In this document: positions 12,038 through 34,713 of the stretch, one piece after another
Position numbering within the stretch: position 1 is the stretch's first letter
How the letters are laid out: each line of letters opens with the position of its first letter
NCBI GenBank assembly: GCA_037308085.1
Contig: CP147779.1
Span: 2,304,001-2,368,000, forward strand
Direction: 5' to 3'
DNA: 64,000 nucleotides
DNA from: Promethearchaeati archaeon SRVP18_Atabeyarchaeia-1
Lineage (GTDB): Archaea > Asgardarchaeota > Atabeyarchaeia > Atabeyarchaeales > Atabeyarchaeaceae
The notes under the pieces: model-generated
Database searches by the model: none
Seen by the model: the letters and a program-made list of their open reading frames with translations, nothing else
What the model was told of the DNA's origin: nothing
Program-made: the position numbers and the translations under genes

Positions 12038-12799
12038 TCAGGATTCCAGCGATGAAGGCAAGGACGCTCCTCTTGCTGGTATCACATTTATTCCTTTTTC
12101 AGTGATTACCATGGGACTTGTCTTGGACTCATGAAGAGTTCCTCTCATCTTGACCACTGTAAGTCCTCGTTCAAACTTTCCACCGTGCCTTATCTGTTCC
12201 AGAAAGATCACGCCATCAGATATGAACTCCTCCACGTCATAGCGGCTTATCTGCCCCTTCCCGCGCCCCTCCGATATCAGGAGGGTTGTGCAACCGAGTT
12301 CTTTCAACGTGGCGATCAGCCGGTGGATGGCGTGCCGTATCGCGCCAGGTTCTTCGATGACGAGTTCAAGCCCAGGTATTGAGTCGAGTACTGCCCTCTT
12401 AGCATTCGTCGTTTTCTGGAGTTGGCTTATAGCCAACAGTAGAGTGTTCATGTTCAGGAGGCGGGTGACTTCGTCTCTGCCAGCATATGGAACCCTCGAC
12501 TTGGGCGAAGCAATATCTATTATCCCCAGTTTGCCATCTTTCTCCAGCTTCTCCAGATCCCACCCAAAACCTTTCATATCAGCTCTGACTGCTGAAGGTG
12601 ACTCTTCAGTTGTAATAAGAATACCATTCTCTCCGAACTTAGTGACACCTTCGACCAAGAATTGGATGCCCAAAATACTCTTTCCCGTGCCACATCCTCC
12701 AGTGACCAGAATGCACCTTCCTCTTGGAAACCCCCCGTGCAGGAGTTCATCGAGTTGCCCGATTCCAGAAGAAACCAAATTGCCTACCGGTTCACTCAT
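12038..12799 (-). CDS. KaiC-like (RAD55) single-domain ATPase
   Basis: SSGIGQLDELLHGG, Walker A GGCGTGKS, TEE, VLDS, VEEFISDG, KMRG. Confidence 0.92.
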   Translation of the reverse strand: MSEPVGNLVSSGIGQLDELLHGGFPRGRCILVTGGCGTGKSILGIQFLVEGVTKFGENGILITTEESPSAVRADMKGFGWDLEKLEKDGKLGIIDIASPKSRVPYAGRDEVTRLLNMNTLLLAISQLQKTTNAKRAVLDSIPGLELVIEEPGAIRHAIHRLIATLKELGCTTLLISEGRGKGQISRYDVEEFISDGVIFLEQIRHGGKFERGLTVVKMRGTLHESKTSPMVITEKGINVIPARGASLPSSLES

Positions 12800-13152
12800 T
12801 GCTCGCACCTTCTGCCATAACACCTAATACTCGAAGCCCAGCGCCAAGGGAATACTCTCCTGACGCAGGCGAGTCCAGAATCTGTCAAAGAGCTCCTTTT
12901 TTCTGATTCTCCGCTGAAAGACATAATGGGGCAATCCCATATTTAAGCTGTGAATCGTTTTCAACGCCTCTCCTCCTAGCAACGAGGAGCCGGCGCGAAT
13001 ATTATTCGAAACCAGCCAGTTGCTGTTCCACACCTCGATTCCCATCATCTGGCGTATCCCACATATTTTGGCTTTCTTTCCTCATTTCATGTCAAGTTGC
13101 GCCATCGTTATTCTACTCGGTCGCCCTGTACTCGTCTCAGACTTATCGTGTT

Positions 13153-13869
13153 TCACTCCGTAGCCGGTTGTGAGAGCCCCTCTGTTCGCTGGATCTCGAA
13201 CAACAGATCACGCAAACTTGTAGAAGAGTAAGGTAGATTCAGACTGGTAGCGACAAGATTCAGACGGTCTAACAATACTTTCAGATTATGGGCTAGCGGG
13301 ATATCCAGCGCTTCGATAGTTTTCAGATCCATTTCGACAACCGGTTTCATCGCACCAACTATTTTCATGATCAAGTTATCTTGCTCTGATATAAGTGTAC
13401 CTTCCTGGGCGCTTTGCCCGCTATCTAGGTCCAGCAGCCTGCATGTCTCCGCAAAGATCTCCTTCGCGAAAGAATCATCAGGATTACAGCTATCTGCAAG
13501 TTTCGCGTTGAAGCCTGCTAAGAAATCTACTATCTCGTCGATCTTGTCAGACACTAGTTTTGGCGCTCTTATACTAAAGAAGACAATGAATGAATAGTAC
13601 CCGAGAGCCGGTAGGCTCCCAAGGGTTCCGAAGCCTATGGCCTCTATTTCGTCCATTGTTATCACTATGCCGGCTGTCTTTCCCTTCGTTGTGTTGAGTT
13701 GTATCATGGACTGCATTGCCAGCTGATTGGCTTGCGCCTCAGCGAGGAAACCTGCAGGGTACCTTGTTATAGGCGTCGGCCCAGATGAGAGGTCGAACCT
13801 GGAAATGAATACCCCTTTGACATATCTTGATGGGATCATGTTGGACGAGCTTGCTGCCAATTCCCTCAT
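13153..13869 (-). CDS. uDENN/longin-like domain protein
   Basis: N-terminal VFISRFDLSSGPTP..YP matches the F-D-x3-GP-x5-P start of uDENN longins. Confidence 0.6.
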   Translation of the reverse strand: MRELAASSSNMIPSRYVKGVFISRFDLSSGPTPITRYPAGFLAEAQANQLAMQSMIQLNTTKGKTAGIVITMDEIEAIGFGTLGSLPALGYYSFIVFFSIRAPKLVSDKIDEIVDFLAGFNAKLADSCNPDDSFAKEIFAETCRLLDLDSGQSAQEGTLISEQDNLIMKIVGAMKPVVEMDLKTIEALDIPLAHNLKVLLDRLNLVATSLNLPYSSTSLRDLLFEIQRTEGLSQPATE

Positions 13870-13968
13870 AACCTCTCATTTTTCATTGTGCATAATTCAT
13901 AACTGCCGTGAGCTTCTCTATCTTCCGAACGCGGGATTCTGCGTGGATCACTTTTCCCCTCGGCATTG

Positions 13969-14580
13969 TCAGTACTTTAGTTGAGCCTTTGACTCCTGAA
14001 GCACGGTTAGGAGCTGGGCGATTCGAGCCTTAGTCCCAGGCGCCACAAGTTCCAGTCTATTAAGATGTCCAGACTCAATGAAGGAGCTGATTGCAAGTAT
14101 CGTTTTGTCAGCAACCGCTTCTAACTTGTCACCGGGTTCGTTAAGAGCTTCCTCTTCATGAGACTTCTCGCAAACCCTTCGCACTCCTTCGAATAGCCTA
14201 AGTGCGGCATCTCCAGGGTGTCGCCTCACATTCTGCAACTCGCTTATTATGAGGCTTCTAATAAGGGGATACGTCTCCCAGATCATCGATTTAGCTTCTT
14301 CCCCAAACATCACTATTATCCCGGTAGCACCTTCAACGCTACTCCCCTCGGTCCCAACCACACCAACTTTGCCTATTTGGGAAAAAGACATAATTGAGCA
14401 GAGAGCCTCTTTCTTCCCTGTTGAGAGTAGCAACATGGCGTCCTCGGCGACATCCTTTAGCCCTTCGCCCGCGATGAATCCCTGTGGGTAGATAAAAGCC
14501 GGAGCTGGGCCCAGGAGCATGTCAAATCTGGTCACAATCACTCCCTCGAAAAGTAATCGCTCTGGTGACCTGCGCGACAA
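13969..14580 (-). CDS. uDENN/longin-like domain protein, paralog of 13153-13869
   Basis: VIVTRFDMLLGPAPAFIYP start, with a similar beta-alpha-beta order. Confidence 0.6.
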   Translation of the reverse strand: MSRRSPERLLFEGVIVTRFDMLLGPAPAFIYPQGFIAGEGLKDVAEDAMLLLSTGKKEALCSIMSFSQIGKVGVVGTEGSSVEGATGIIVMFGEEAKSMIWETYPLIRSLIISELQNVRRHPGDAALRLFEGVRRVCEKSHEEEALNEPGDKLEAVADKTILAISSFIESGHLNRLELVAPGTKARIAQLLTVLQESKAQLKY

Positions 14581-15005
14581 TCTGGTTAACCCCCATTACC
14601 CCATCGTGCGTGCACTGCTCGAACACCGTGTTCAGCTAGTAGAGTAGTTGAAGTTCCTTTTATTTTCTTCTTACTTATCTTCTACACAGAATTGTCTCTC
14701 CGGGCTCCCTCGATGGTTAAGCGCTGACACCGAGACTCAACCATAGAACACCACATCCGCGATAGCCCTTTTCTCGCCTCGACTAGAGAAATTGGAGTCT
14801 GGCAAACAAGCTCTGGCCTGACTTGGGTCGGGAAAGGCACATCAAGCGCTAGGATGACTATGCGCATTATTAAGTTCATTTGCCTATGAACATTGTGAGC
14901 ATCGAAAGCGAGGTACGTTGATAGACTGTGCCCTGCAGAAATGACAACATTTATGATGCAGTGCGTGGTTAGCAGAAACTGACATGAGGGGGTGTTCTTC
15001 TGTAA

Positions 15006-15539
15006 ATGCCCATAATCAAAATTCTGATAATGGGTCTGCCAGCGTCCGGCAAGACAACTTTCGTCAAGCATGTCTTTGAAGGAAAGGAATTGAACGATCT
15101 GAAGGACTACATTCCGACATATGGCGTGAATATAGCATTGTATAACTACAAGGGCTCGGAGGACATTAAGATCTCAACCTTCGATTGTGGTGGTCAGACA
15201 AGTTTTATCGACACCTATTTGACTGATCAATGGGTTCCCAGACTCTTCGCGGAAGTCTCGGCTCTTTTCTTCGTGGTAGATTCGTCATCGAAGAAGACTC
15301 TCAAGGATGCCAACAAGCTTTTCCACAAGTACCTTGAGAACGTATACAAGTATTCTGAAGACGTAGTGATCCATGTACTGGCATCAAAATGGGACAAACA
15401 TACCATCACAAGAGATGAACTCAAGGAAGCATTCTCGGATCTCGACGTTCGTCCCATATCCGTCGTCGACGGTTCAGCCAGACAGGTTACGCAGGCGATA
15501 ATGGACAGGCTAATCAGCGAAAGGAAGACGAAAAAGTGA
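15006..15539 (+). CDS. Small Ras-superfamily GTPase, Rag/Gtr1-like (Arf-related)
   Basis: G1 GLPASGKTT, G2 PT.G, G3 DCGGQ, G4 SKWD, G5 ISV. Confidence 0.85.
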   Translation: MPIIKILIMGLPASGKTTFVKHVFEGKELNDLKDYIPTYGVNIALYNYKGSEDIKISTFDCGGQTSFIDTYLTDQWVPRLFAEVSALFFVVDSSSKKTLKDANKLFHKYLENVYKYSEDVVIHVLASKWDKHTITRDELKEAFSDLDVRPISVVDGSARQVTQAIMDRLISERKTKK

Positions 15540-15609: not shown

Positions 15610-16362
15610 TTACCTTCGTCCCACCGTGAGCCTGCCAGTTCCACCGTTCCTCGATACTGGAATCCATTTGGACTCGAAGTTGGTCCTTCTCATCTTGGAT
15701 ATGCAGATCTCCTTGCTTATGAAGCCCTGTTGCTCTGCGTTTCTGAAGAGTATGACGGAATCGAGCAACTGCTGAAGAGAGGCCACAGTCTGCACGTCAT
15801 GCATTCCCTCCGTCAATATGAAGATCGAGGTTGAGTTTGACTCCTTGAGCTTGGCAACCATCACGGAAGCTAGTTGATAGACAGACTGGGGAGCCGCATT
15901 CATGAGCAATGACGACAGAATATCGACTGAAACCCTTATCCGCCTACCCCCTATCTTTTCGGTCGCTGTCGATACCGCGGCCGCTACGTGATTCAAATCC
16001 ATTGATGATCTTACAACCTTATCAATCACCTGAGGATAGGGAACATCAGTTGTCCGCCAACTGTAGCAATCAACGAACATTAGGCTGGACCTCTGCTCCT
16101 GCGTCAACTCGTCAAAGTCGAGGCCCACTTCCTGCCAACTCTCCTTGACTTCGTCAACAGATTCGTTTGAGAGAACCATCACTCCACCTTCACCAGCCCT
16201 CAACCCATCGGCTATGAATTGCAGGCAGAAAATGTGTTTCCAGCTTCCTGGAGGCCCGTACAGAAGAGTCGATGAACCCTGAGGTATTCCCCCCTCGATC
16301 AATGCATCAAGTCCTTCTATTCCTGAACTCATTCTTCTGCTCATTTCTCGCAGCTCCTCCAA
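15610..16362 (-). CDS. KaiC-like ATPase with degenerate Walker A
   Basis: SSGIEGLDALIEGG, GPPGSWKH in place of GxxGxGK[ST], KMRR. Confidence 0.85.
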   Translation of the reverse strand: MEELREMSRRMSSGIEGLDALIEGGIPQGSSTLLYGPPGSWKHIFCLQFIADGLRAGEGGVMVLSNESVDEVKESWQEVGLDFDELTQEQRSSLMFVDCYSWRTTDVPYPQVIDKVVRSSMDLNHVAAAVSTATEKIGGRRIRVSVDILSSLLMNAAPQSVYQLASVMVAKLKESNSTSIFILTEGMHDVQTVASLQQLLDSVILFRNAEQQGFISKEICISKMRRTNFESKWIPVSRNGGTGRLTVGRR

Positions 16363-16372
16363 GAGTTCCCTG

Positions 16373-16990
16373 CTAATGCTCCCATTCGTGTCCTGTCATT
16401 TCCAAGTTGTACCTAAACTCGCAGCATGAATCACCTTTCGCGGTGCACTTCGATTCGACGAAGCCCACCTTTCTTCCTAGGGAATGCTCCAAGGCACCCG
16501 CAATTACTCCTCCAGTAAAATAGCAGATACTCACTCCTATGTCCATAATCCCGCAACAGTCGGCACACTCTTCGACCTGATAAACCAACAGCTTGCCTTT
16601 CTCGAATTCAGTCAACGTCAAGAGACCGGTGCCAGTCGATTTGAATCCTGTCTGTAGCGCAGAGTACCCGGTTGAGAGTCTTGCCTCCTTGAGATTCTCA
16701 GCTTCAGCAAAATCACGGTAACCTGGGAGTTTCTGAAGCATTGGCATGCCTCCTTCTGTAAGTCCAATCCCAGTCTGCCTTCCAGCCTCGAAAAGCACGT
16801 GACCCATAGACTCAGCCAAGACCAGGGCTGCAAGCACTGGCCTCTGGTAAGTCAGTAGGTCAACTGAATCCCCAAGTTTCTCTCGGATCCTATCCTTGTA
16901 TCCTGGCGTGTGAAGCATTCTCTCAAGTTGCGCTTTCGTGAGTTCTCTAATGATCTCCTTCTCTCTCACAACACGTGCTCTCGTCGACAT
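16373..16990 (-). CDS. V4R domain protein (Bet3/TRAPP-like fold)
   Basis: REKLG, ECADC...C.F.GG.IAG and ESKC.AKGD.CCEF. Confidence 0.85.
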   Translation of the reverse strand: MSTRARVVREKEIIRELTKAQLERMLHTPGYKDRIREKLGDSVDLLTYQRPVLAALVLAESMGHVLFEAGRQTGIGLTEGGMPMLQKLPGYRDFAEAENLKEARLSTGYSALQTGFKSTGTGLLTLTEFEKGKLLVYQVEECADCCGIMDIGVSICYFTGGVIAGALEHSLGRKVGFVESKCTAKGDSCCEFRYNLEMTGHEWEH

Positions 16991-17040: not shown

Positions 17041-17634
17041 CTATACTGTATATCTGAATTCACAGTTTGGGTCACCTTTTGCGCAACACTTCGATTCAAC
17101 AAATCCTACTTTTCTGCCAAGAACGCCTTCTAGAGTGCCAGCGATATTTCCACCAAGGAAGTAACATACACTCTGTCCCAAGTCTCCGACTCCATAGCAT
17201 ATGGCACACTCTTCAACCTGAACCACAATCAGCTTGTTCTTCTCAAATTCGCTTAACGTTAGGAGACCCTGGCGAGTTGTTTCTGCAAAAATCTGAAGAG
17301 TCGTAAACTCATCTGAAAGCCTAGCCTCCTCCAAGTTATTGGCATCAGCAATGCTACGAAAACCCGGTTGTTTCCGTACCTCGGGCCACATTTCCTCGAG
17401 CATGTAGGTTGCGGGTCTCCTGCCTGCCTCAAAAAGGATTGGTCCCATAGACCTGCTGAGAGACAAGGCACCAAGCATGCGTTCCTGGTAGGATAATAGG
17501 TCAACCGAGTCCCCAAGTTTTTCACGAATTCCGATCTTGCTAGGTGAACTTAGCAATTTCTCAAACTGCATTCTTGCCATGGCCTTGAGGACCTTCTCGG
17601 CGATCGTGAGCAGACAACCTCCCCCAATAATCAA
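17041..17634 (-). CDS. V4R domain protein (Bet3/TRAPP-like fold)
   Basis: Paralog of its neighbours: ECAIC...CYFLGG.IAG and ESKCCAKGDPNCEF. Confidence 0.85.
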   Translation of the reverse strand: MIIGGGCLLTIAEKVLKAMARMQFEKLLSSPSKIGIREKLGDSVDLLSYQERMLGALSLSRSMGPILFEAGRRPATYMLEEMWPEVRKQPGFRSIADANNLEEARLSDEFTTLQIFAETTRQGLLTLSEFEKNKLIVVQVEECAICYGVGDLGQSVCYFLGGNIAGTLEGVLGRKVGFVESKCCAKGDPNCEFRYTV

Positions 17635-17663: not shown

Positions 17664-18245
17664 TCATGAAATGCTACACCTGAATTCACAATAGGAATCT
17701 CCTTTAGCTTGGCATAGTGATTCGACGAAGCCGACGTTTTTTCCAATTACGACCTCCATTGCGCCAGCGAGCTGACCTCCGAGATAGTAACATACGCTTT
17801 CTCCGAGGTTAGGGAGCCCAGTGCAGGACACACATTCTTCAACTTGGAAAATGAGGAGTTTCCCTTTTTCGTATCTGACCATGTTTATAATCCCCGTACC
17901 AGTCATCTGATACATTGCTTGAACAATCGACCACTCAGTAGAGCGTTGGGCTTCCTGCAGCGTACTAGACTTATTGATACTCTGATAGTTTGGCAGCTTC
18001 TGTATCATGGATAGGGATTTCGTGGAGAGAGCCCTTCCAACTTTCTTTCCAGCTTCTGCTAGTACCGGTCCCATGGATTTGCTTAGAGCGAGTACTCCTA
18101 TCACGCGTTCTTGGTATGCCCACATGTCTATGAAATTGCCGAGCCTTTTGCGGAGCCTAGCGTTGACCTTTGGGTTCTCTATCAGTCTTTCAAACTGCCT
18201 TTCAGCTAACGCATCTAGAATATCGTCCGCTTTCAATTGAACCAC
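17664..18245 (-). CDS. V4R domain protein (Bet3/TRAPP-like fold)
   Basis: ECVSC...CYYLGG.LAG and ESLCQAKGDSYCEF. Confidence 0.85.
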   Translation of the reverse strand: MVQLKADDILDALAERQFERLIENPKVNARLRKRLGNFIDMWAYQERVIGVLALSKSMGPVLAEAGKKVGRALSTKSLSMIQKLPNYQSINKSSTLQEAQRSTEWSIVQAMYQMTGTGIINMVRYEKGKLLIFQVEECVSCTGLPNLGESVCYYLGGQLAGAMEVVIGKNVGFVESLCQAKGDSYCEFRCSIS

Positions 18246-18281: not shown

Positions 18282-18866
18282 CTAGCTTTCCCTAATCAAT
18301 CTGTTTAGATTCTCGATTTCCCTTCTATACTTGGTCCGCAGTTCTGGATCGTCTGCAAGATGTCCCCTGTTCTCGGCAGCTTTATTGATTAGATTAGTGA
18401 GTGAATCCTTCCGAGTCGTGAGTTCCGACGCGAGGAGTTTCGTTAGTCTCTGGCCCAGTCTTATGGGCGTCCTCACCGCGTCTTGGGTTTTGACTGGGGC
18501 GTAAGGTGGCTCACTGCTCTTCTGCGAGATAGGATCATCTTCACAAATCGCGGAATTTGGGAACTTGTCCATGTCGTTTTCAGCGAATGCATTCCTCACG
18601 TTCTCATGGAACCCCGAAGTACTATCCTCGTCGTGAGAAGCATCGACCAAAGCCGCGAAGATCAGTGATGGAGATTCGTTGAAGGCAGACTTTGAGGTTC
18701 CTGATGCCATGATTCTTATGTCAACGCCGCGAATCTCTTTCATGAACGCGATCATCGCCTTGAGGAGACCACTAACAAGGTAGCAGTTCACAAGTGTCGT
18801 CCTGAAACCCTCATGGTAGATGCAGATTCCATTCTTCTCTGAGACAACGCATGGTCCATGGGTCAT
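18282..18866 (-). CDS. Longin-like domain protein
   Basis: G.CIY followed by the LVSGLL.A...F..EI helix typical of Asgard-type longins. Confidence 0.55.
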   Translation of the reverse strand: MTHGPCVVSEKNGICIYHEGFRTTLVNCYLVSGLLKAMIAFMKEIRGVDIRIMASGTSKSAFNESPSLIFAALVDASHDEDSTSGFHENVRNAFAENDMDKFPNSAICEDDPISQKSSEPPYAPVKTQDAVRTPIRLGQRLTKLLASELTTRKDSLTNLINKAAENRGHLADDPELRTKYRREIENLNRLIRES

Positions 18867-23611: not shown

Positions 23612-23986
23612 TTACGGTCTCCCTGCCTGACGAAGGATCTCCATACCTTTCTCAAGATCTCTCGCTGTGTGAACTTTTTCTAGCGAGAACCCCATTTCCA
23701 CCAGCGTCATCGCAACGTCGGGTCTTAGACCGGTAATTACAACTTGGGCGCCCATTATATTCGCAGCTGTCGCGATCTCACCTATTTGTCGCACAAGGAA
23801 GCTGTCCACAATATCTATCGCGCTCACGTCGAGGACAAGCCCTTTCGCCTTCGTTTCGACGATTCTCTGAAGTATTTCATCTTTGTACTTCACAGCCAGT
23901 CTGTCATGGAGCGGCACCTGCGGAGAGGTGATTAGAAATTCTCCTGACTTCAAGATTGGAATGGTAACTTTCTCCAAACCTATCAT
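23612..23986 (-). CDS. rsbS: Stressosome STAS protein RsbS
   Basis: IPILK, LHD, IVDSF (phospho-Ser site), G.RP.VA.TLVEMG. Confidence 0.92.
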   Translation of the reverse strand: MIGLEKVTIPILKSGEFLITSPQVPLHDRLAVKYKDEILQRIVETKAKGLVLDVSAIDIVDSFLVRQIGEIATAANIMGAQVVITGLRPDVAMTLVEMGFSLEKVHTARDLEKGMEILRQAGRP

Positions 23987-24828
23987 CTCGCACTAGTCCT
24001 AGTCAGTTTCAATCCCAGCTTCGCGTATGCATACTCAAGCCCATCTCTCAACGTGCTACGCGAAACGATGCCCGATAAGTCGATGCCAAGCGTCACGAGA
24101 GTTACTGCGACATCAGGTCTAATACCAGTAACCACGACCTCTGAACCCATTAGTCTCACAGCTTGTATTGTCCGAAGGATGTGACTGGCCACCTTTGTAT
24201 CGATCGCGGTGATGCCACTGATGTCCATGACGACGACTTCTGTCTTTGATCGCATTATGTTCTCCAGAATCAACTCAGTGAGCTGCTTTGCACGAGAAGA
24301 ATCAAGAATCCCTATCAGAGGTACCATCGCGATGCCTTCCCAAGCGCTGACGATAGGTATGAGCAGTCTCAGGCCCATCTCTTGTTGCTTGATGACGGAT
24401 TCCTTTTCGGTGACGAATGCGGAGGCTACAATGTTCAGGATTTTGCGTGCCACTGGCTCGTAGACGGCAATAACCGCACTGCACGTTTCTGGGTCTTTAT
24501 AGTTATTTTCAAAGATGAACCGACCGTACAGGTCTCTCAGAATCAGGAAGCCTGCGATTATCTGCTCAACCGTCATCGATGCCAGAACTCCTTTCTTAGC
24601 AACATTCGCTGCATATCTTTGGGCTGATTCGTATGATCCAGTCTTCAAGCACAATAGGCATTCGTTGTAGATCGCTCTCGACTCCTCCTCTATCTCCCTG
24701 GGGGAGAGGGACACGAGTAGACCAGATTGTCGCATTTCATTGATCCACCGCGACCTGATCTCGTCTGCATTCTGCTCCAGCAGATTACTTAAAGTCCTTA
24801 CAAGTTCCTGGCTATTCTTCTTCGACAT
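23983..24828 (-). CDS. rsbR: Stressosome sensor/co-antagonist RsbR
   Basis: Helical N-terminal domain plus STAS domain with LDS.RA and IDT.VA phosphosites; overlaps the rsbS start. Confidence 0.9.
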   Translation of the reverse strand: MSKKNSQELVRTLSNLLEQNADEIRSRWINEMRQSGLLVSLSPREIEEESRAIYNECLLCLKTGSYESAQRYAANVAKKGVLASMTVEQIIAGFLILRDLYGRFIFENNYKDPETCSAVIAVYEPVARKILNIVASAFVTEKESVIKQQEMGLRLLIPIVSAWEGIAMVPLIGILDSSRAKQLTELILENIMRSKTEVVVMDISGITAIDTKVASHILRTIQAVRLMGSEVVVTGIRPDVAVTLVTLGIDLSGIVSRSTLRDGLEYAYAKLGLKLTRTSAR

Positions 24829-24980
24829 CCCACTCTCATCTCCATAGTCATTTGCGTCATAATCACTTTAGAACCTTTTACATTCCTTTCTGCGTGGAAA
24901 GAAATCCTTGAAAACCTGAATAATATAGGCAATTTCTCCACTCCTGCTCCATCTGTGCCTAGAACAAGCCTGGTTGTCCT

Positions 24981-25544
24981 TCATAGTCTGATCACCTCAT
25001 CGCAGAATTGTCTTACCGTCGAGAGGACATTCCCTTCAACTGAACCCTCAACCGCGAAAATCGCACCGTCAAACCCGAGAACCCTAAGACGGCCAACCAG
25101 GAAGTGAAGGAAATGAAGCAGCGCGCCCGAGCTATTGTAGACTAATAGAGTTGAGAGTGAGTCGATTAATAGCCATGAGTCATCTCTCTTGCAGTTTAGT
25201 AGTTCGACAGCCTTCTCGAAAGCCATCTGCGTGGCTGACAACTCAGAGGGTGATGCTACGTTGAGGCTACCTTTCACCTCACTAGACCCGACACTCTTCG
25301 ACACGAGATCTATGACGTAGGTTTTCTCAGTCTCAAGAGACTCTCTTAGGTCAAACCCGTAGACCCTCAGCTTTTCGACAAGATCCTTTGTCGACCTATT
25401 TGAGGAGACGTAGATCCCTTTATCATCCTGCCTATACCTTAAGAAGTCTGCCACAATCTTCATCGGGTTCTCACTGACAGGAACCTCCAGTAGCACGACG
25501 GACTTGGGCACAACGCGTTTAAGCCTGTCCTCAAGTTTCACCAT
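24981..25544 (-). CDS. Inactive KaiC/RecA-fold protein
   Basis: Lacks Walker A but keeps GIYVS, ID.VS, LIDSLSTLL.YN and FCDEVI. Confidence 0.75.
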   Translation of the reverse strand: MVKLEDRLKRVVPKSVVLLEVPVSENPMKIVADFLRYRQDDKGIYVSSNRSTKDLVEKLRVYGFDLRESLETEKTYVIDLVSKSVGSSEVKGSLNVASPSELSATQMAFEKAVELLNCKRDDSWLLIDSLSTLLVYNSSGALLHFLHFLVGRLRVLGFDGAIFAVEGSVEGNVLSTVRQFCDEVIRL

Positions 25545-25563
25545 TTGAATATCGTACCTCGTG

Positions 25564-25881
25564 TCAAATCATTGATCTCTTCTTAATCTCCTCAATAGCG
25601 GTTTGCAACTCCATATCCTTGAGAAGAGCGTAATCCACATTTAGCTTATCACACAATGTCTTCAGAACCAGTCCGTCTATGACTTTGGCCCCCAGCTTGA
25701 AGATGTCTTTGATCGCTGTGGCAAAGTCTTCAAGCCTTTTCGGGATCTGGTCCTTCCTAAGTGAGAGGGCGGCCGCCAGGTAAGTGTACAGGAGCGATCT
25801 AGTACTCTCACCCAAATTCAACATCGCATCGTCTATTGAACTGAGCAGGAGTTCCTCAAAGCTATTTGGTTCGCTACTCAA
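25564..25881 (-). CDS. Small helical KaiC-associated output protein (DUF3227/NitrOD5-like)
   Basis: SID..L..LGES....Y.YL....IP...E.F...I..IF..GA..I pattern; lies between KaiC-like genes. Confidence 0.6.
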   Translation of the reverse strand: MSSEPNSFEELLLSSIDDAMLNLGESTRSLLYTYLAAALSLRKDQIPKRLEDFATAIKDIFKLGAKVIDGLVLKTLCDKLNVDYALLKDMELQTAIEEIKKRSMI

Positions 25882-25935
25882 CTAGCTACCTCCCTACGTT
25901 CGCTGCTTGAAGATACGATAGATTAAACCAGATTA

Positions 25936-26640
25936 TCATCTACTGGCAGCGGGAATTGAGGACACGCTTATGCCTTCGGACGTGATATAGAAGTCGTGGC
26001 AATCCAATGAATGGTCGACGCCACGCATCTTTGGAATGTAGATCCTTCTCCTAACCTTGTTTTCCTCCAAACTCGATTCGAGGATGATTAGTCCGTCAGC
26101 TAGGAATTCCTCAAATCCCATTCCTATCTCCCTCTTGCCCCAGGGAATCTCCAAGATGAGGAGGGTTGTGCACCCAGTATTCGAAAGCAACTTGCTCATC
26201 ATTGAGATGAAGCTGCGGGCCTCAGACCTTGTGTGGACATAAGTCATGATAGCGGAGAGGCTGTCGACCACGAGTCGCTTGGCACCAAGTTCCGTGATGG
26301 AAGAGATCAGCTCTGCGAGGTTCGCTTCGACGCCTCTGTCGCTTGCCGACTGTACAAGGTCTAGAACGCTGAGCTTTCCTCCTTGCCCCAGCTTGTCCAG
26401 ATCCCAGCCAAGTCTGAGCATATCTCGCTTGAGCTTGGCGGCGCTCTCAACAAAGGATGCATAGATCCCCGGCTCATTCAGCAGCGATACACCGTTATAA
26501 ATGAACTGCATACCAAGAGTACTTTTCCCGGCGCCAGGCTGACCCGCTACCAGAATCACGTCTCCCTCATTGAAGCCACCGTCAATTATCCTATCCAGGG
26601 AAGGGATCCCCGAAGACAACACGTTTCTTCTCAATCTCAA
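25936..26640 (-). CDS. KaiC-like (RAD55) single-domain ATPase
   Basis: SSGIPSLD, GQPGAGKS, VVDS, EEFLADG, KMRG; TTG start at about 26640. Confidence 0.92.
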   Translation of the reverse strand: MRLRRNVLSSGIPSLDRIIDGGFNEGDVILVAGQPGAGKSTLGMQFIYNGVSLLNEPGIYASFVESAAKLKRDMLRLGWDLDKLGQGGKLSVLDLVQSASDRGVEANLAELISSITELGAKRLVVDSLSAIMTYVHTRSEARSFISMMSKLLSNTGCTTLLILEIPWGKREIGMGFEEFLADGLIILESSLEENKVRRRIYIPKMRGVDHSLDCHDFYITSEGISVSSIPAASR

Positions 26641-26886
26641 TATCCCCCTGCATGATCGTCCCACCTTAATGGATACGGAAATGATTACCGCTGAACCTTA
26701 AAAGGATTTGACCGAGCACCGCATTACCGATGCTCCCTGGTGCGAGATTCGCATCGCACGTCCCCCCTCCCCCTCGGAGCGTTTGGTGTTGAGTCTTTCA
26801 CATCCCGCTTCACCGATGCGCTCCACAACATTTCCGACGGAGTTGCTTGGATATCATAAAAAGGGAGTGAACTCACTTCCATAGAC

Positions 26887-29800
26887 TCACTTTTCAGATT
26901 TCTTTGGAGCCGTTTGCGGCTTGGCAGATTCCTTTAGGTCATAGGATGATCCCAGCAGAGCTGGTGTTAGTATCTTCTCAAATAGCTCGATGTAGGGCTC
27001 CCCTATGCTCACGAGACCAACAAGCTCAGTGTCCTTTTGCGCCATCGGTGCGAAAAGTATCTCTTCAGAGTCCTTTGAACACCCGTAGCACGATAGATCT
27101 GCAGATGCTCTGAGGCTAACGTTTCCCATCTTAGCTATCTCTGCCAGTGTCTGCATCTCCTTTTCGTCACCTTTTGTTTCTCCAACGACCAGTGTTACTC
27201 TCGTCGCCTTCTTGACTTTGGGGATTTCTTCCAAGGGTGCCTCTGACACTGTTGGAAGCATGATCATTATGTGGCTCTTCGTCCGCTTTATCATATCCTG
27301 TACGTGTGACATCAGTGCCACTTTCGTCACCACAGGCCAACTCTTCTCGCCTCCAAACATCGGGCTCTTCTCAAGTTCCATCCAGGCGCTTTGGAGGACC
27401 CATTCAACGCTGGCGGATGTCTTCCTCAGCTTATCGATGCTCTCACTGAGGTTCGCCAGAGACTTCCTAGTCTCCTCTTTAAGTAGCGCTTCATTTTTGT
27501 CTATGTAGCCGATGAGAGTCGAGTCAGTGTTGGTCATGGAGTTCTCGAATCTGGTTTGGTGGGTCAGCATAGTCTCTTGGAGGTTCTTTTCGTTTACCAT
27601 TGATATCTCTCTGTATCTTTCGTAGGACCTCGATAGGAGGTATCCACATGTGCCAGCAGCACCAAATGCCTCTTGCTCGTAGTCCTGCAGGTGCGATGAG
27701 ATCACTCTTTGGAACCTCTCCTTTGCGCCGGCAGCTTCTGACTTGAACTCTCCAAGTGAAGTATTTGTCAGCTTGGTCAATGACGTGCAAATTGTAGATG
27801 TGGTGTCGACCATTGTGTTGATCTGTTTGTTTGAGACATCATTGAGTTCTTTCACAGTTTTGCCCGTGAGCTGCTCAATTTGTCCGGAGAGGTTCTCTTT
27901 CGACTCTGAGACTCTAGTCGTGGATGCTTCCACGAGGTTCTTGATTTCCTCCATTGCCTGTCCACTGAAGCTGGTAAGATCCCTCTGTAAAGCTGCAGCC
28001 AAGTTGTCGAACTCACCCGTGACGGCCGCCATCGCTCCCCGAATAGAGTTGGTCGTAGTCTCAGTAATCTCCTTACTCGTGGCGAAAGTAGAGCTAACCA
28101 GTTTGTTGACGTTAGATTGAATTAATGATCTTGCTCCATCAGAGTTCTTCGATGTCTGCACAACAAGCTGCTGCAGATTGGACTTGCCCCGTTGGATGTG
28201 CCCATCCAGCTGGTCGAGGTGCTTGGCCAGAGCCGCTTCTAGGGAAGCATGCGTTTCTGCGGCTAGATCACTAATTTCCTTTGTATGCAAAGCGTGTTGA
28301 GCATTCGCGCTTTCAATCAGCTGCTTCTGGATCCTAGTCAGAGACGCAATCTGTTTTGCATAAAGGTCAGCCAAAGCCTTTCTTGCAATCTCGCTCTCGC
28401 CAGCGTACTGCTTCGCTGAAACATCAATCATGTCCAGCACCAGATTCTCGAAGCTCCCGACCGATGAAGAGTAATCTGCAAATCTTGGCAGCAGGCTTGC
28501 TGCGACCACTTCACCCTTCTGTAGCTCGAGTCTTGCGTTCTTGATATTTGTGGATGGTGCCGCAACGACATCCGTTTGGATCCCTGTGATTTCTTCCTCG
28601 AAAGAACGGTGCGCAGTCGCAACTTCCTCCTTCAAGTATTTCCTCAATTCGTCAGTCACTCTCTTCTCAAAACCTTTCAGCACCTCCCTGACCTCTGAAG
28701 TAATGGAGGTCTTTCTTGCGGCTCCTGGTGACTTCTTGGTTGAAACTCTTGCGGGGTTCTCAGCGATTGGGATTGAAGGAACCGATGCAAGAATTCTTTC
28801 AACTATGCCATTCATCTCCTTCTCTAGGGCTGGGAAGTAGGAGGAAACTTTGCTCTCTGCTTTCTGAGACAGTCCTGACAACAGGGCGTCATTCTTCTTA
28901 CCCAGTGCGATGCTCATCTTCTGCAGATTCCTCTCAATGTCAGATACAACGGTTCCCAAGGCGTTGTTGCAGCCGGGGATTATTGTCGAGAGAATCGACT
29001 CTAGAAATGATGTTGTCAGCTGACATGATGAGATATGCGACGTAATGGTGCCGCTTAAGGTGCCTTTTATCGCTGAAGCAGCTCCAGTCAGATTGGCAAG
29101 TCCGCTTGAGTATACTTCTTCAACCCTCGCTCTTAGTTCCTCGAAAGAGGGCTTTGTTTTCGCAGCGACAGACTCAACCATCGTTTGAGCTGTCGAGCTG
29201 ATCTTGTCACCTTCGCGGATTGCGCTATTCACTAATATATCCAAGCTTCTGGAGACGAGCTGAGCTGATTCATTTACATCTGCCTTGTACATGAACCACC
29301 ATTTGCCAACAGATGTTGCGGTCTTCTCCTTGAATTCTGCTAGAAGTCTAGTCAGTTCTGCCGTGAAACTCTTCGTCGTCTCGTCAACTGAGGACTTCAA
29401 CTTGCTTAGGTTGGAGGAAGCCGACTTCATGAAACGATCTGTCACTTCTCTGATGTTGGACTGAACTTCCAGTGACTTCTCGCCAAAGGTTTTTCTCTGA
29501 TTCTCCAACGTTTCGGAACTCCGTGCCTTAACAGCAACTATAGTGGCTCTCTCTTTTTCCTCAAGTTTGCCCTGAATTGAGGCGATCTCGTTCTCAAGGA
29601 GAGTTAGGTTTTCTCTGCTCTGTGTTTTGTACTCTTGTAGGTCCGTGTTCACTGTCCCTAGGAACGTCTGAACCCCACCCTTGTAGCTCTCAAGGAAAGA
29701 CGAAGTCACGTCTGTTGCTTCCTTCAGATAATTCTTGGCAGCCGTATCGAACTTTGTCGTGACGTTGCCTATTCCTGAAGCCAGCTCCGCCTCTGCTTCA

Positions 29801-30375
29801 TTTGATTTCGCCTTATGCGTGTCGACGTGCTTCTTAATTGCGTCCGTAATCATGTTCTTCGTAACTTCGGTTTCCTGCTTGAGTTTCTCCAGCATCTCAG
29901 CGATGCTCTTCGAAGAGTTCTGCTCGTATAGCTCTATTTCACCTTTTGTTTGACCCACGCTTGATCTTGCAGTTTGCAGGGCCTCTTTCTTCCACTCCTC
30001 GCAGTTCTGGCTAACAGCTGCCAAGGTGGAATCAATAGTGCTTGTTGTGTTCGCCCCTATGTTCTTGGCAATCTTCTGAAAGTCCTTAAGAAAAGCCACG
30101 AACCCCGCATAAGGAGGTATGGCTGCATATCGGTCGACCACACTGGGGATCCGCCTGATCAACCGCTCATTTTCTAACTCAACCATCGCTTTCGATGTCA
30201 ACACGAAACCCAAACCACTCTTAGTTGAGATCTCTCCGGCTGTCATAGGACCGATGCTGAGAAGAACCCTGAGCGCATCTGTCGCCGGGTCGGAGATGCC
30301 CATTGCTTCCTTCAAGATCTGATTAAATAACACGCCTTCTTCTCCAACAGTCTTTGCCTGCGTCTCCTTTGCCAT
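26887..30375 (-). CDS. TrmB-like wHTH, ~900-aa amphipathic helical region and TrmB-type C-terminal domain
   Basis: N-terminal GPMTAGEIS..SG...L...RLI...RY.AIPP; long low-Pro helical middle; C-terminal D.EEILFAP. Confidence 0.75.
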   Translation of the reverse strand: MAKETQAKTVGEEGVLFNQILKEAMGISDPATDALRVLLSIGPMTAGEISTKSGLGFVLTSKAMVELENERLIRRIPSVVDRYAAIPPYAGFVAFLKDFQKIAKNIGANTTSTIDSTLAAVSQNCEEWKKEALQTARSSVGQTKGEIELYEQNSSKSIAEMLEKLKQETEVTKNMITDAIKKHVDTHKAKSNEAEAELASGIGNVTTKFDTAAKNYLKEATDVTSSFLESYKGGVQTFLGTVNTDLQEYKTQSRENLTLLENEIASIQGKLEEKERATIVAVKARSSETLENQRKTFGEKSLEVQSNIREVTDRFMKSASSNLSKLKSSVDETTKSFTAELTRLLAEFKEKTATSVGKWWFMYKADVNESAQLVSRSLDILVNSAIREGDKISSTAQTMVESVAAKTKPSFEELRARVEEVYSSGLANLTGAASAIKGTLSGTITSHISSCQLTTSFLESILSTIIPGCNNALGTVVSDIERNLQKMSIALGKKNDALLSGLSQKAESKVSSYFPALEKEMNGIVERILASVPSIPIAENPARVSTKKSPGAARKTSITSEVREVLKGFEKRVTDELRKYLKEEVATAHRSFEEEITGIQTDVVAAPSTNIKNARLELQKGEVVAASLLPRFADYSSSVGSFENLVLDMIDVSAKQYAGESEIARKALADLYAKQIASLTRIQKQLIESANAQHALHTKEISDLAAETHASLEAALAKHLDQLDGHIQRGKSNLQQLVVQTSKNSDGARSLIQSNVNKLVSSTFATSKEITETTTNSIRGAMAAVTGEFDNLAAALQRDLTSFSGQAMEEIKNLVEASTTRVSESKENLSGQIEQLTGKTVKELNDVSNKQINTMVDTTSTICTSLTKLTNTSLGEFKSEAAGAKERFQRVISSHLQDYEQEAFGAAGTCGYLLSRSYERYREISMVNEKNLQETMLTHQTRFENSMTNTDSTLIGYIDKNEALLKEETRKSLANLSESIDKLRKTSASVEWVLQSAWMELEKSPMFGGEKSWPVVTKVALMSHVQDMIKRTKSHIMIMLPTVSEAPLEEIPKVKKATRVTLVVGETKGDEKEMQTLAEIAKMGNVSLRASADLSCYGCSKDSEEILFAPMAQKDTELVGLVSIGEPYIELFEKILTPALLGSSYDLKESAKPQTAPKKSEK

Positions 30376-31533: not shown

Positions 31534-31953
31534 ATGTCTCAAGATGTGACATTTGCTAAGATGGTAAAGCTCTCTGATGAGCCGATAGTTCTGCCAAGCA
31601 TGTTTCAAAAGGTCTTGGGGGAAAACAAACATGCGCTAATGATCCTCGCGGTCTCCACCAAGACAATCCGGTTGATTCCCACGGCAAGCCCAGAAGTGGT
31701 GAAGGTTGGTATTGAGATCAAGCAGTTGACCCCAGAATACCTCAAGAATATGAGTGAAGCATTCGTTAAGCATGACCTGAAGGTTGTTTACTCTACTGGA
31801 TTCTGCTACAAGGGTGAAAAGTGCATTTACGAAGCATACTTTGATCCTACAGAGATCAAGATGGACGACGACAAGCTCAGGGAGATAATTCAGTCACTGG
31901 AGGGCACTACGAGGATCGAAGTCACAAGGATCAATACAGAATCTTCTTCCTAG
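31534..31953 (+). CDS. Hypothetical protein, possible ACT-like domain
   Basis: Alternating beta/alpha pattern with YSTGFC...C.YE.YF. Confidence 0.55.
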   Translation: MSQDVTFAKMVKLSDEPIVLPSMFQKVLGENKHALMILAVSTKTIRLIPTASPEVVKVGIEIKQLTPEYLKNMSEAFVKHDLKVVYSTGFCYKGEKCIYEAYFDPTEIKMDDDKLREIIQSLEGTTRIEVTRINTESSS

Positions 31954-31988
31954 TCAGGAATCAGAGACTGGAGCTTAATCAATCACTT

Positions 31989-32291
31989 GTGAAGCGTGGT
32001 TTCATGATCGTCTTGGACAGCCTTGCTACTGGGGGTTTGCGTTTGGAAGACATCGGAACCATTGATGCGACCTTAGGAGAGGTCGGAGAGGCTACGTTGC
32101 TGGCTCTAAAAGATGGGGCTAGAACTCCTGAGGAGATACGGGCATTGACGGGCCTTGTTCCAAAGTTGATTTCGGCTCGCTTGCGCGTGCTGGTTGACTT
32201 GAAGTTGGCAACAGTGGGCTCTGATGGATATCTCCTGACCGAACAAGGTCTGGAACTAGCCAAGCTTGTCGCAGAGAGAAGGAATGCATAG
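31989..32291 (+). CDS. Winged helix-turn-helix protein
   Basis: T..EI...TGL....I..RL..L....L......Y.LT..G. Confidence 0.7.
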   Translation: MKRGFMIVLDSLATGGLRLEDIGTIDATLGEVGEATLLALKDGARTPEEIRALTGLVPKLISARLRVLVDLKLATVGSDGYLLTEQGLELAKLVAERRNA

Positions 32292-32400
32292 AAGCCTCTT
32301 GTATGGGGGAGAAATCACCCCCTTCACAGAGGAAAGTCGAGGGATTTGGGTTTGGAGGACCCATTAGAACCTGTTAAGTTCTGCAAGGGAGTGGATCTGC

Positions 32401-32859
32401 GTGTCAAAGAAAGGCGCTGATGAGAAATCAGACAAGAGGGGTGGAGTTACCTATCTTCTGTGTGTAGCGATTATTGGATACGATGAGCAAAATGATAAGC
32501 CTGTGTTAAAGGCAAGCTACCCTGAATTTGATCTCAGTGAAGGCACCCTAAGCGGCGTATATTCTCTCTCATCTTTCACCGGAAACGAGCCAGGCTTCAT
32601 CTCGCTTGGGGTTGACGAAGGCGTAGTGATGAGTTATTACACTGGCGTCCTAGAGCCTATGCGCTGCCGGCCTCATTGTCTGGTTCTCTTCCTCGATAAA
32701 CCAGACAAACCCGAAAGATACAGGCAACTTCTGACTAAGCTGGGGTCTGTAGTCTTTCCCCTTCTCTGTGATAGAGACTTCAAGGAGTTTGTTAGGAAAC
32801 TCTACGAGGCGGCGTCACTGACAGGTGAACTCAGATCAAAGCGTTCCTATTACGCATGA
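32401..32859 (+). CDS. uDENN/longin-like domain protein
   Basis: AIIGYDEQNDKPVLKASYP start, with YYTG and a following hydrophobic strand. Confidence 0.5.
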   Translation: MSKKGADEKSDKRGGVTYLLCVAIIGYDEQNDKPVLKASYPEFDLSEGTLSGVYSLSSFTGNEPGFISLGVDEGVVMSYYTGVLEPMRCRPHCLVLFLDKPDKPERYRQLLTKLGSVVFPLLCDRDFKEFVRKLYEAASLTGELRSKRSYYA

Positions 32860-32994
32860 ACTGGCAGATTCAACTCTTGGGCGGCTGCGCCGTAACGGGT
32901 TTGAGCCAAGAGAAACGAAAAACTGAGGAGAGACCGAGCTGAATTCGCTCTCCACGGAGATTGCCTCAGAGAATGAGTTCAGAAGGGGGATCTG

Positions 32995-33303
32995 ATGCAA
33001 ACGACGATAAGGTTCTTCACATCCAAGCACTGTGGCTTCTGCCGAGCAGCAAAAACAATACTAGACGGAATCAAGCAGAGCTTCGGCGAGAGCATGAGGG
33101 TAGAGGAGGTAGACATTGACGAGAATCCCCGAGCCGCAATCGAAGAAGGAATACTCGCACTCCCAGTTATCATCGTAGGTTCTTGGAAGTTCGTGGGGGT
33201 TCCTGACAAGGATGACATCATGACAGCAGTACTTAATTCCTTTGGCGGCCAAACGATCACTGCTTCAGAAAACAACAGAGAGATTCTCCAGGAGGGCAGA
33301 TAG
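32995..33303 (+). CDS. Thioredoxin-fold protein, KaiB-like, directly upstream of KaiC
   Basis: CGFC active site, VDIDENP..A...GILALP, G.P. Confidence 0.8.
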   Translation: MQTTIRFFTSKHCGFCRAAKTILDGIKQSFGESMRVEEVDIDENPRAAIEEGILALPVIIVGSWKFVGVPDKDDIMTAVLNSFGGQTITASENNREILQEGR

Positions 33304-33307
33304 CACA

Positions 33308-34048
33308 ATGGATAGAACACCTTCAGGCATAACGAATCTCGACAAGCTAATAGAAGGAGGATTCCCAAAGGGGAGGACGATGCTTGTAGCAGGGGGGGCA
33401 GGGTGTGGGAAGACCATTTTCTCGTTGCAGTTCGTGTACTCGGGTGCAGTGCTTTACGATGAACCGGGGGTCTATGTCTCATTTGAGCAGCCTGTTGACG
33501 AAGTAGTTAGGGACGCGCAGAGATTCGGGTGGGACTTCGAGGAGATTCAGCGAAACAAGAAACTCGCACTCCTAGATTACTCCGCTGCGAAGACAAGAAC
33601 AACGGAGGTAGTCGTCGAGAGCCCAGAGTTCAACCTAAACCCTCTGATCAAAGCCATCGAGTTCACAGCCAAGGAAGTGGGCGCCAAGAGAGTCGTACTT
33701 GATTCCATTACTGCACTCCTCTTGCAGTTCCGGCACACGGACATTGTTCGTAGGGAACTGCAGCGTGTTAGTTCAGCTTTGAAGAGGATTGGATGCACCA
33801 CGGTCTTAACCTCGGAAGTGCCCAGAGGCCAGGTTGGATTCGGTAGGTTTGGTGTAGAGGAGTTCGTCGTAGATGGGGTAATCGTTCTCCAAGTCATTCA
33901 GAAGGGACTGCTGAGATTTAGGTGCATTGAGATAACTAAGATGAGAGGCACGAAAGCCGAGCTTGGGCTGAGAGCCTTAGGCATCACTGAAAGTGGGATG
34001 ATAGTATACCCAGAGAAGGTGTACACGATCGAGCAACTAGTCGTGTGA
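33308..34048 (+). CDS. KaiC-like (RAD55) single-domain ATPase
   Basis: PSGITNLD, GGAGCGKT, SFEQ, VLDS, VEEFVVDG, KMRG; ATG at 33308, 4 nt after the thioredoxin stop. Confidence 0.93.
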   Translation: MDRTPSGITNLDKLIEGGFPKGRTMLVAGGAGCGKTIFSLQFVYSGAVLYDEPGVYVSFEQPVDEVVRDAQRFGWDFEEIQRNKKLALLDYSAAKTRTTEVVVESPEFNLNPLIKAIEFTAKEVGAKRVVLDSITALLLQFRHTDIVRRELQRVSSALKRIGCTTVLTSEVPRGQVGFGRFGVEEFVVDGVIVLQVIQKGLLRFRCIEITKMRGTKAELGLRALGITESGMIVYPEKVYTIEQLVV

Positions 34049-34173
34049 GAATTACCGATCACTTCTAAGCTCAGGGAGGAAAGATTATTAGCAAGAATCG
34101 TCTGCTCAATGCATGTCAACAATGAGATCAAATCGAGCCACCTAAGTATCGCTAGTCGGGTGCTAATCGAAAA

Positions 34174-34713
34174 ATGCCTACTATAATCAAACTAATAATA
34201 ATGGGTCTACCGTCGTCGGGGAAGACAACGTTCGTCAAACACATATTCGAAGAGAAGGAATTCAAGGGGATCGAAGACTACAAGCCGACGTTTGGCGTAG
34301 GCATATCTCTTTACGAGTATAAGGGTTCAGAAGGCATGATGGTCTCCACGTTTGACTGTGGGGGTCAGACAAGTTTCATTGACACATATATGACTGACCA
34401 ATGGGTTCCGACCCTCTTCGGAAAAGTCGCCATATTCTTTTTCCTTGTCGACTCCTCAGCAAGAGATAACCTGGATAGTGCCGCTAAGCTCTTTCGCAAG
34501 TACTATGAGAATCTTAGGAGGAATTCAAGCGCCGCAAAGGCATATGTACTGGCATCAAAATGGGACAAGCATCAAGTCATGCTTGACGAGTTGAGTCCGT
34601 TTTTCAAAGAGATCGACATATACCCAGTATCGGTCATAGACGGATCAGCTCGGAAAGTGTTCGAAGAGATAATGCATAACCTAATAGAGGAAAGAAAAGC
34701 GCAAGCAGATTAG
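34174..34713 (+). CDS. Small Ras-superfamily GTPase, Rag/Gtr1-like; close paralog of 15006-15539
   Basis: GLPSSGKTT, FDCGGQTSFIDTY.TDQWVP, SKWD. Confidence 0.85.
   Translation: MPTIIKLIIMGLPSSGKTTFVKHIFEEKEFKGIEDYKPTFGVGISLYEYKGSEGMMVSTFDCGGQTSFIDTYMTDQWVPTLFGKVAIFFFLVDSSARDNLDSAAKLFRKYYENLRRNSSAAKAYVLASKWDKHQVMLDELSPFFKEIDIYPVSVIDGSARKVFEEIMHNLIEERKAQAD

Follow-up and report, generated by a model that had tools for sequence, protein, structure and literature searches.

Tandem longin paralogs with a GP motif and no conserved arginine finger, encoded beside a Rag-like GTPase and a KaiC-family ATPase in an Asgard archaeon

Rag and Arf GTPases of eukaryotes are switched off by longin heterodimers, namely GATOR1, FLCN-FNIP and C9orf72-SMCR8. 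A 2025 survey described longins with a glycine-proline (GP) motif in Asgard archaea and left their client GTPases open (PMC12290439). In a cultured Lokiarchaeon the genes of GTPases generally lie apart from those of longins, which makes it difficult to match regulators to clients; Rag-like GTPases and longin fusions of Asgard archaea are already in the literature (PMC10933270). Here we describe a locus of Promethearchaeati archaeon SRVP18_Atabeyarchaeia-1 in which two neighbouring paralogous genes, A and B, encode longin proteins with a GP motif and no conserved arginine finger. B is divergent from a gene for a Rag-like GTPase (GTPase 1), and A is followed by a gene for a KaiC-family ATPase. 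The locus lies in a stretch of 64,000 nucleotides, referred to as the window (GenBank assembly GCA_037308085.1, contig CP147779.1, positions 2,304,001 to 2,368,000 of the forward strand). It offers a concrete and testable pairing, in which a Rag-like G domain and a KaiC ATPase accompany two GP-motif longins without a finger; the linkage recurs in rearranged form in relatives, and the locus bears on the origin of the eukaryotic longin-heterodimer regulators.

In NPRL2, a subunit of GATOR1, the catalytic arginine finger is R78. The corresponding fingers of SMCR8 (R147) and FLCN (R164) sit in the loop between strands beta4 and beta5 of the longin domain (bioRxiv 10.1101/2020.04.16.045708). The GP motif is reported to occur in the longins of C9orf72, SMCR8, FLCN and NPRL2, to be specific to longins of the GTPase-activating protein (GAP) type and to be absent from the longins of FNIP2, NPRL3, TRAPP, adaptin and DENND; Asgard longins of the FLCN/SMCR8 type carry it together with an arginine finger (PMC12290439). 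In C9orf72 the residues W33-D34 contact ARF1, and the W33G/D34K mutant is without GAP activity (PMC8213707).

A first-pass annotation of the window, made from the sequence alone, had read A and B as paralogous uDENN-type proteins forming a possible ancestral GAP module for the adjacent GTPase. All three open reading frames (ORFs) are present exactly where it placed them (Table 1), and GTPase 1, which carries FDCGGQ, is indeed head-to-head with B across a spacer of 425 bp. Because orthologs of A, B and GTPase 1 are present in related metagenomic contigs and genomes, the three are real genes and no chance ORFs. A and B are paralogs, as had been supposed, with 31% identity across 102 residues (BLASTP, E 3e-11). 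Both contain the motif FDxxxGP; when 29 members of the two subfamilies are aligned together, its F, D, G and P show little or no variation. The likeness to an F/W-x4-GP strand-turn that the annotation had remarked on is borne out: F/W-D-x3-G-P is the motif published for the FLCN/NPRL2/C9orf72/SMCR8 class (PMC12290439, PMC8213707). Its spacing in A and B is that of C9orf72 W33-D34...G38-P39, the aromatic-Asp pair standing three residues before GP, and in both families GP lies at the beta1-beta2 turn with F-D before it, as in GAP-type longins. With 25 proteins at E <= 1e-3 among 1.84 billion cluster representatives, the A/B family is very small and lineage-restricted, and the epithet "ancestral" is therefore doubtful; a lineage-specific elaboration is more likely.

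AlphaFold2 models of A and B were built on family alignments (predicted local distance difference test, pLDDT, 77.9 for A and 80.3 for B) and compared with other structures by VIA, Foldseek and the ESM Atlas. Both models have the beta-beta-alpha-beta-beta-beta-alpha-alpha topology with a five-stranded antiparallel sheet that marks the longin superfamily. DSSP assigns to the model of A strands 17-26 and 30-37, helix 44-60 and strands 66-72, 77-86 and 90-99, and to that of B strands 11-20 and 24-31, helix 39-54 and strands 60-66, 71-78 and 85-93, followed in each by helices. The C-terminal part of both is an all-helical three-helix bundle (residues 156-231 in A, 149-201 in B), which stands in place of a DENN domain; neither protein has one. 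Yeast Lst7 lacks it too and shows that GAP-type longins do not always have such a domain.

By VIA the best match of both proteins is a Lokiarchaeal roadblock-longin, 8yqg_A (Z 13.8 for A, 14.5 for B). It is followed for A by the FLCN complex chain 8dhb_I (11.6), Lst4 (11.3), the GATOR1 chain 9o5a_C (11.2) and the C9orf72-SMCR8 chain 7o2w_A (11.1), and for B by Lst4 (12.5), 7o2w_A (11.3), GATOR1 (10.7) and the FLCN complex (10.6). The range of 10.6-12.5 spanned by the longins of Lst4, FLCN-FNIP2, GATOR1 and C9orf72-SMCR8 compares with 9.2 or less for SNARE longins, 8.8 or less for TRAPP longins, 8.7 or less for DENND1 and 7.9 or less for roadblock proteins. Foldseek E-values are weak (3e-4 to 1e-2), yet they name the same families, and the Atlas, searched by features and by shape, returns clusters of NPR2, C9orf72-like, Folliculin, DENND11 and Avl9 proteins; among its language-model neighbours, NPR2 is found on 19% of members. 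The longin (uDENN-type) fold suggested at first pass is thus what the predicted structures display, with the longins of FLCN/FNIP, NPRL2/3 and C9orf72/SMCR8 as nearest solved relatives besides 8yqg. When a profile of the longin part only was run against the PDB, the best natural match was human NPRL2 (residues 7-67, through F..LGP....PEDFIS) at E 0.059, a weak N-terminal similarity that is suggestive and not significant. A profile of the full-length proteins retrieved only designed coiled coils and SNAP-25, via the helical tail, and these matches were discarded as spurious.

In the models the beta4-beta5 loop is P87-A88-L89 in A and G79-S-S-V-E-G84 in B, and across 19 A-type and 14 B-type sequences it shows no conserved Arg or Lys. 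A and B thus both resemble C9orf72, the partner that holds the GTPase and has no finger, and for this reason we do not regard the pair as an arginine-finger GAP on its own; on this point the first-pass proposal of a GAP fails its own check.

GTPase 1 has both marks of a Rag/Gtr G domain, DCGGQ and the Rag-type switch II pattern, and its designation as RagA-like stands. Its top Pfam match is Gtr1_RagA at 79 bits, a modest margin over Arf at 63, and its best match in the PDB is Gtr1 (48 bits), followed by Arl1 (46) and RagA (42). The P-loop, G3 and G4 motifs listed in Table 1 are invariant in 31 relatives. A relative from another Asgard family, 45-49% identical, aligns to Gtr1 via the switch II pattern GGQ..F...Y.T.Q....F..V. 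Unlike Rag and Gtr proteins, GTPase 1 lacks the C-terminal roadblock domain that mediates Rag heterodimers, and it has no N-terminal amphipathic extension. G-alpha proteins possess an intrinsic arginine three residues before the switch-I Thr. Such an arginine, as in G-alpha or MglA, was considered for GTPase 1 and, no alignment to MglA having been made, ruled out, since its switch I reads Y35-x-P-T38 with the Tyr invariant in the 31 relatives. A "RagGtr" group of Asgard GTPases has been described (bioRxiv 10.1101/2024.02.28.582541), and the sequence of GTPase 1 fits membership in it as a bare G domain. The closest relative of GTPase 1 in another Asgard family (L049:5321-6247, minus strand) has 308 residues, with a C-terminal extension of about 135. 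If this extension is a roadblock, the Atabeyarchaeia proteins would be Rag-type GTPases that lost the domain.

We compared ten loci: that of the window and L012, L009, L053, L001, L010, L002, L011, L008 and L007, whose A proteins are 84% down to 41% identical to that of the window. B is directly followed by A in all ten, and a KaiC-family ATPase comes after A in nine. V4R genes and a DUF7504-type KaiC-like gene, the window copy of which has a degenerate Walker A, precede B in six, and an ortholog of GTPase 1 is adjacent in five. The V4R array upstream of the pair is kept in L001, L009, L010 and L012 and partly in L053. The GTPase 1 ortholog is divergent from B in the window, L012, L009 and L053; in L007 it is convergent after A, in the place of KaiC, and at 67% identity is closer to GTPase 1 than is the paralog within the window. 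The link between pair and GTPase thus recurs in relatives in two different gene arrangements. Of the neighbours, the KaiC ATPase is steadier than the GTPase, on which the first-pass annotation had the pair act. Among 31 Asgard genomes the A/B family is present in seven and the GTPase 1 subfamily in five, all of which are among the seven.

We propose, with a probability of about one half, that A and B form a finger-less GP-motif longin heterodimer that docks a Rag-like GTPase inside a KaiC-centred signalling cluster. As lineage-specific paralogs the two would pair longin to longin, and the dimer would be the docking platform for the neighbouring RagGtr-like GTPase. The KaiC-family ATPase would be the fixed partner of the cluster, with V4R sensor-type proteins, inactivated KaiC and the GTPase as variable ones, and the longin dimer would couple the nucleotide state of the GTPase to a KaiC-based switch. 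A complex prediction of A, B and GTP with the GTPase as partner gave 0.08 and 0.16 against a mark of 0.32 and was used neither for nor against binding.

Several points weigh against this proposal. Heterodimerisation, GTPase binding and the direction of regulation are steps that we infer, in contrast to the fold, the motifs, the missing finger, the paralogy, the gene linkage and the phyletic co-occurrence, which are shown. Pfam gives zero matches for A or B at E <= 1, and the sequence homology to eukaryotic GAP longins suggested by the NPRL2 match is below significance. That the finger is missing is concluded from alignments and predicted secondary structure, not from a solved complex. Adjacency of GTPase 1 is limited to half of the loci: the clusters of L001 and L010 are without a GTPase, and in a complete relative genome about 48 kb separate the pair from the GTPase 1 ortholog, whose neighbour there is a 1162-aa coiled-coil protein. 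Neither the loci nor the genomes counted are independent samples, being relatives of each other. From the conserved blocks described below, KaiC and B each appear to have a promoter of their own, and co-transcription is not implied.

The pair could also be a minimal GATOR1- or C9orf72-SMCR8-like GAP for the adjacent GTPase, using a non-canonical catalytic residue or working finger-free as MglB does. Reports of the GP motif are confined to GAP-type longins (PMC12290439), and the closest folds are those of longins in GAP complexes. The catalytic Gln of DCGGQ is kept in GTPase 1 and all of its 31 relatives, and the GTPase therefore looks built for stimulated hydrolysis; conserved basic residues do exist elsewhere in the pair (R36, R/K24 and K62/K64 in A; K71, R128 and K56/K57 in B). 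What makes us consider such an activity unlikely is the beta4-beta5 loop, which in neither family has a conserved Arg or Lys, together with the fact that the sole nearby longin with a conserved Arg in its putative loop is P0037, a protein of the second module described below. In every eukaryotic complex of this class known to us, one subunit carries the finger. A different alternative takes its cue from the gene counts: with KaiC after A in nine of ten loci and GTPase 1 beside the pair in five, A and B might be an adaptor or regulator of the downstream KaiC, an input or output module of a KaiC hub, with the GTPase facultative and without direct contact. Makarova et al. 2017 (as cited in PMC5847659) proposed that KaiC-like ATPases serve archaea as signalling hubs. 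The region is rich in genes for KaiC, inactivated KaiC, STAS and thioredoxin/KaiB-like proteins, and in a distant Asgard family a KaiC/GvpD-like ATPase gene precedes an A/B-like gene in operon-like fashion. This alternative is made unlikely by L007, where a GTPase ortholog occupies the position of KaiC, by the phyletic co-occurrence of longin and GTPase and by the GTPase-longin fusions that exist in Asgard archaea (PMC10933270). We know of no interaction between a longin and KaiC.

Longin platforms are more often guanine nucleotide exchange factors (GEFs) than GAPs, and the longins could, with the upstream V4R proteins (Bet3/TRAPPC3 superfamily), make up a TRAPP-like GEF for the GTPase. V4R arrays and a further longin-like gene stand before the pair in six of the ten loci, and P0055, a remote member of the A/B family whose C-terminus is weakly V4R-like (E 0.06), abuts GTPases. 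In Asgard archaea, V4R/TRAPPC3-like proteins and longins assemble into dimers resembling those of TRAPP, and one study describes a longin fused to TRAPPC3 (PMC10933270). TRAPP longins nevertheless score below GAP-type longins (Z 8.1-8.8 vs 10.6-12.5) and are reported to lack the GP motif (PMC12290439), the V4R proteins keep a Cys cluster typical of ligand-binding V4R domains, and V4R genes are absent from four of the ten loci, all of which renders a TRAPP-like GEF very unlikely. At only 177-238 aa the proteins should pose few problems in expression, which makes the locus suited to asking whether longin dimers of archaea bind Rag-like GTPases, whether the pair is a GAP, a GEF or a scaffold and whether KaiC provides an input to small-GTPase signalling.

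Set against described systems, A and B share with C9orf72-SMCR8 (the CSW complex, an ARF GAP) the longin fold, the pairing of longins and the GP turn, here in both subunits, and differ from it in lacking an SMCR8-type arginine finger, DENN domains and WDR41, in their C-terminal helical bundle and in having a candidate client that is Rag-like rather than Arf. With the Rag GAPs GATOR1 (NPRL2-NPRL3) and FLCN-FNIP (Lst7-Lst4) they have in common the fold and, as neighbour, a RagGtr-like GTPase; equivalents of Arg78 or Arg164, DEPDC5, the DENN domain and the Ragulator context are missing. The published Asgard GP-motif longins (Traffic 2025, PMC12290439) and 8yqg belong to the same class and likewise come from Asgard archaea. 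Those longins are reported with an arginine finger, unlike A and B, which moreover are paralogs encoded in tandem, end in a helical tail and show a link to KaiC that is conserved. MglB is a GAP that supplies no arginine finger, its GTPase MglA having an intrinsic arginine. MglB-MglA resembles the locus in that the gene of a small dimeric platform of the roadblock/longin superfamily lies next to that of its GTPase, but MglB has roadblock topology (Z 7.4-7.6). New in the present locus are the tandem paralog pair in which both subunits are finger-less, the helical tail in place of a DENN domain, the conserved partnership with KaiC and the recurrent, not universal, adjacency to one RagGtr-like GTPase as candidate client.

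Table 1 Coordinates, in the window, of the longin pair, its neighbours and the second module
Feature	Position	Strand	Description
Longin protein A	13153-13869	-	238 aa; contains FISRFDLSSGPTP; longin ~residues 17-147, F25-D26...G30-P31
Longin protein B, paralog of A	13969-14580	-	203 aa; contains VTRFDMLLGPAP; longin ~residues 11-142, F19-D20...G24-P25
RagGtr-like small GTPase 1	15006-15539	+	177 aa, G domain only; P-loop GLPASGKT, G3 DCGGQ, G4 SKWD
KaiC-family ATPase	12038-12823	-	261 aa, downstream of A; Walker A GGCGTGKS intact; Pfam KaiC 241 bits
KaiC-like protein, DUF7504 type	15610-16362	-	Degenerate Walker A GPPGSWKH; Pfam KaiC 115 bits, DUF7504 50 bits
Three tandem V4R-domain proteins	16373-16990, 17041-17634, 17664-18245	-	Pfam V4R 46-54 bits each
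194-aa protein heading the V4R array	18282-18866	-	N-terminal ~107 residues a Fuz/Mon1/HPS1-type longin lead
TATA-like TTATTAAG	14867-14874	+	132 nt upstream of GTPase 1 ATG; invariant in four aligned divergent spacers
TATA-like GAAGAAAATAAAAGG	14656-14670	-	76 nt upstream of B start; invariant in four aligned divergent spacers
Shine-Dalgarno-like GGGGGT	14589-14594	-	Nine bases before B start; kept in relatives
Promoter-like block CTTAAATAT(N21)TCAGCGGAG	12909-12947	-	Between A and KaiC; five loci
P0037, NPR2-like longin candidate	32401-32859	+	152 aa; Atlas 0.93 to the NPR2-bearing cluster of B
Thioredoxin/KaiB-like protein	32995-33303	+	102 aa, second module
KaiC	33242-34048	+	Second module
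RagGtr-like GTPase 2	34174-34713	+	Second module, paralog of GTPase 1

Of the neighbours listed in Table 1, the ATPase downstream of A is a KaiC-family member by its RecA-like KaiC domain and intact Walker A, and the DUF7504-type protein is, judged by its own Walker A, probably an inactivated KaiC. The array above it consists of V4R proteins rather than bona fide Bet3. The 194-aa protein at its head, with counterparts of 196-199 aa in L001 and L009, is a lead only: the Atlas feature score is 0.90 and the template modelling (TM) score about 0.5, obtained on a low-confidence Atlas model (pLDDT 0.58). The promoter-like block between A and KaiC, for which 0 matches are expected by chance, was found in five loci; their A proteins share 58-100% identity with that of the window. 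It is probably the promoter and leader of KaiC, and with such a block in place an operon of B, A and KaiC is therefore not implied. An ORF in the divergent spacer (14682-15071, minus strand) was dismissed as no gene, none being called there in L009, L012 or L053. A scan of the entire window with Rfam gave no match.

At least five KaiC-family genes are found in the window. A further group on the minus strand (23983-26664) comprises a STAS-domain protein (23983-24828), a DUF7504-type truncated KaiC-like protein (24981-25544) and a KaiC (25936-26664). Beyond it, also on the minus strand, 26887-30375 encodes a 1162-aa protein with a TrmB-like N-terminal winged helix-turn-helix and long coiled-coil (apolipoprotein-like) repeats. 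In G003 and L054 its ortholog adjoins that of GTPase 1, in L012 the V4R array, and from this gene order it seems to be part of the same rearranging super-cluster.

At a distance of 17 kb from the pair lies a second module of P0037, a thioredoxin/KaiB-like protein, KaiC and GTPase 2, the last being 61% identical to GTPase 1. L051, L052 and G003 keep this gene order. An Arg in the "LEPxRCxPH" stretch of P0037, conserved in 4 orthologs, would fall in its putative beta4-beta5 loop. The co-directional span of the module is 31534-34713 on the plus strand, with a 139-aa protein and an ORF of about 100 aa resembling a winged helix-turn-helix protein before P0037. The ortholog of GTPase 2 in the complete relative genome (G001:C1:2107570-2108085; L014/L046) has one in-frame TAG within the match. 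A bolder idea, which we put forward tentatively and as improbable in full, is that Rag-type GTPase, NPRL2/C9orf72-type longins and KaiC ATPases are parts of one device: A-B would hold the GTPase, P0037 with its loop arginine or KaiC would set the nucleotide state, and the whole would represent a prokaryotic precursor of nutrient signalling through Rag-GATOR1/FLCN, connected to a KaiC switch and not to the lysosome.

Longins, GTPases and KaiC-like ATPases are also found together in other Asgard genomes. In a distant family, L048 (G030:C9:478000-496000) has three A/B-like longin genes within 5 kb. One directly follows the gene of a KaiC/GvpD-like 468-aa ATPase in operon-like fashion, another is divergent from the ATPase, and the third heads a string of longin, TrmB regulator and Ras-family GTPase with stop/start overlap. 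P0055 (L016:1390-2319, plus strand) has 309 aa and a Cys-rich C-terminus, and its gene is convergent with three genes of Arf-type GTPases; the C-terminus, beside its weak V4R match, weakly matches Afi1, both as leads only, and the protein may be a longin-V4R fusion. According to the Atlas, some 170 residues beyond the G domain of a 341-aa family of Asgard GTPases match A and B. This suggests a GTPase-longin fusion and agrees with the fusions described in Asgard archaea (PMC10933270). A search with P0037 retrieved a widespread family of 360-410 aa in several Asgard genomes (L023-L030), whose members start with MPKGL..RWDDxLG(P/A), a C9orf72-like WD...GP longin turn, and continue into a long C-terminal region.

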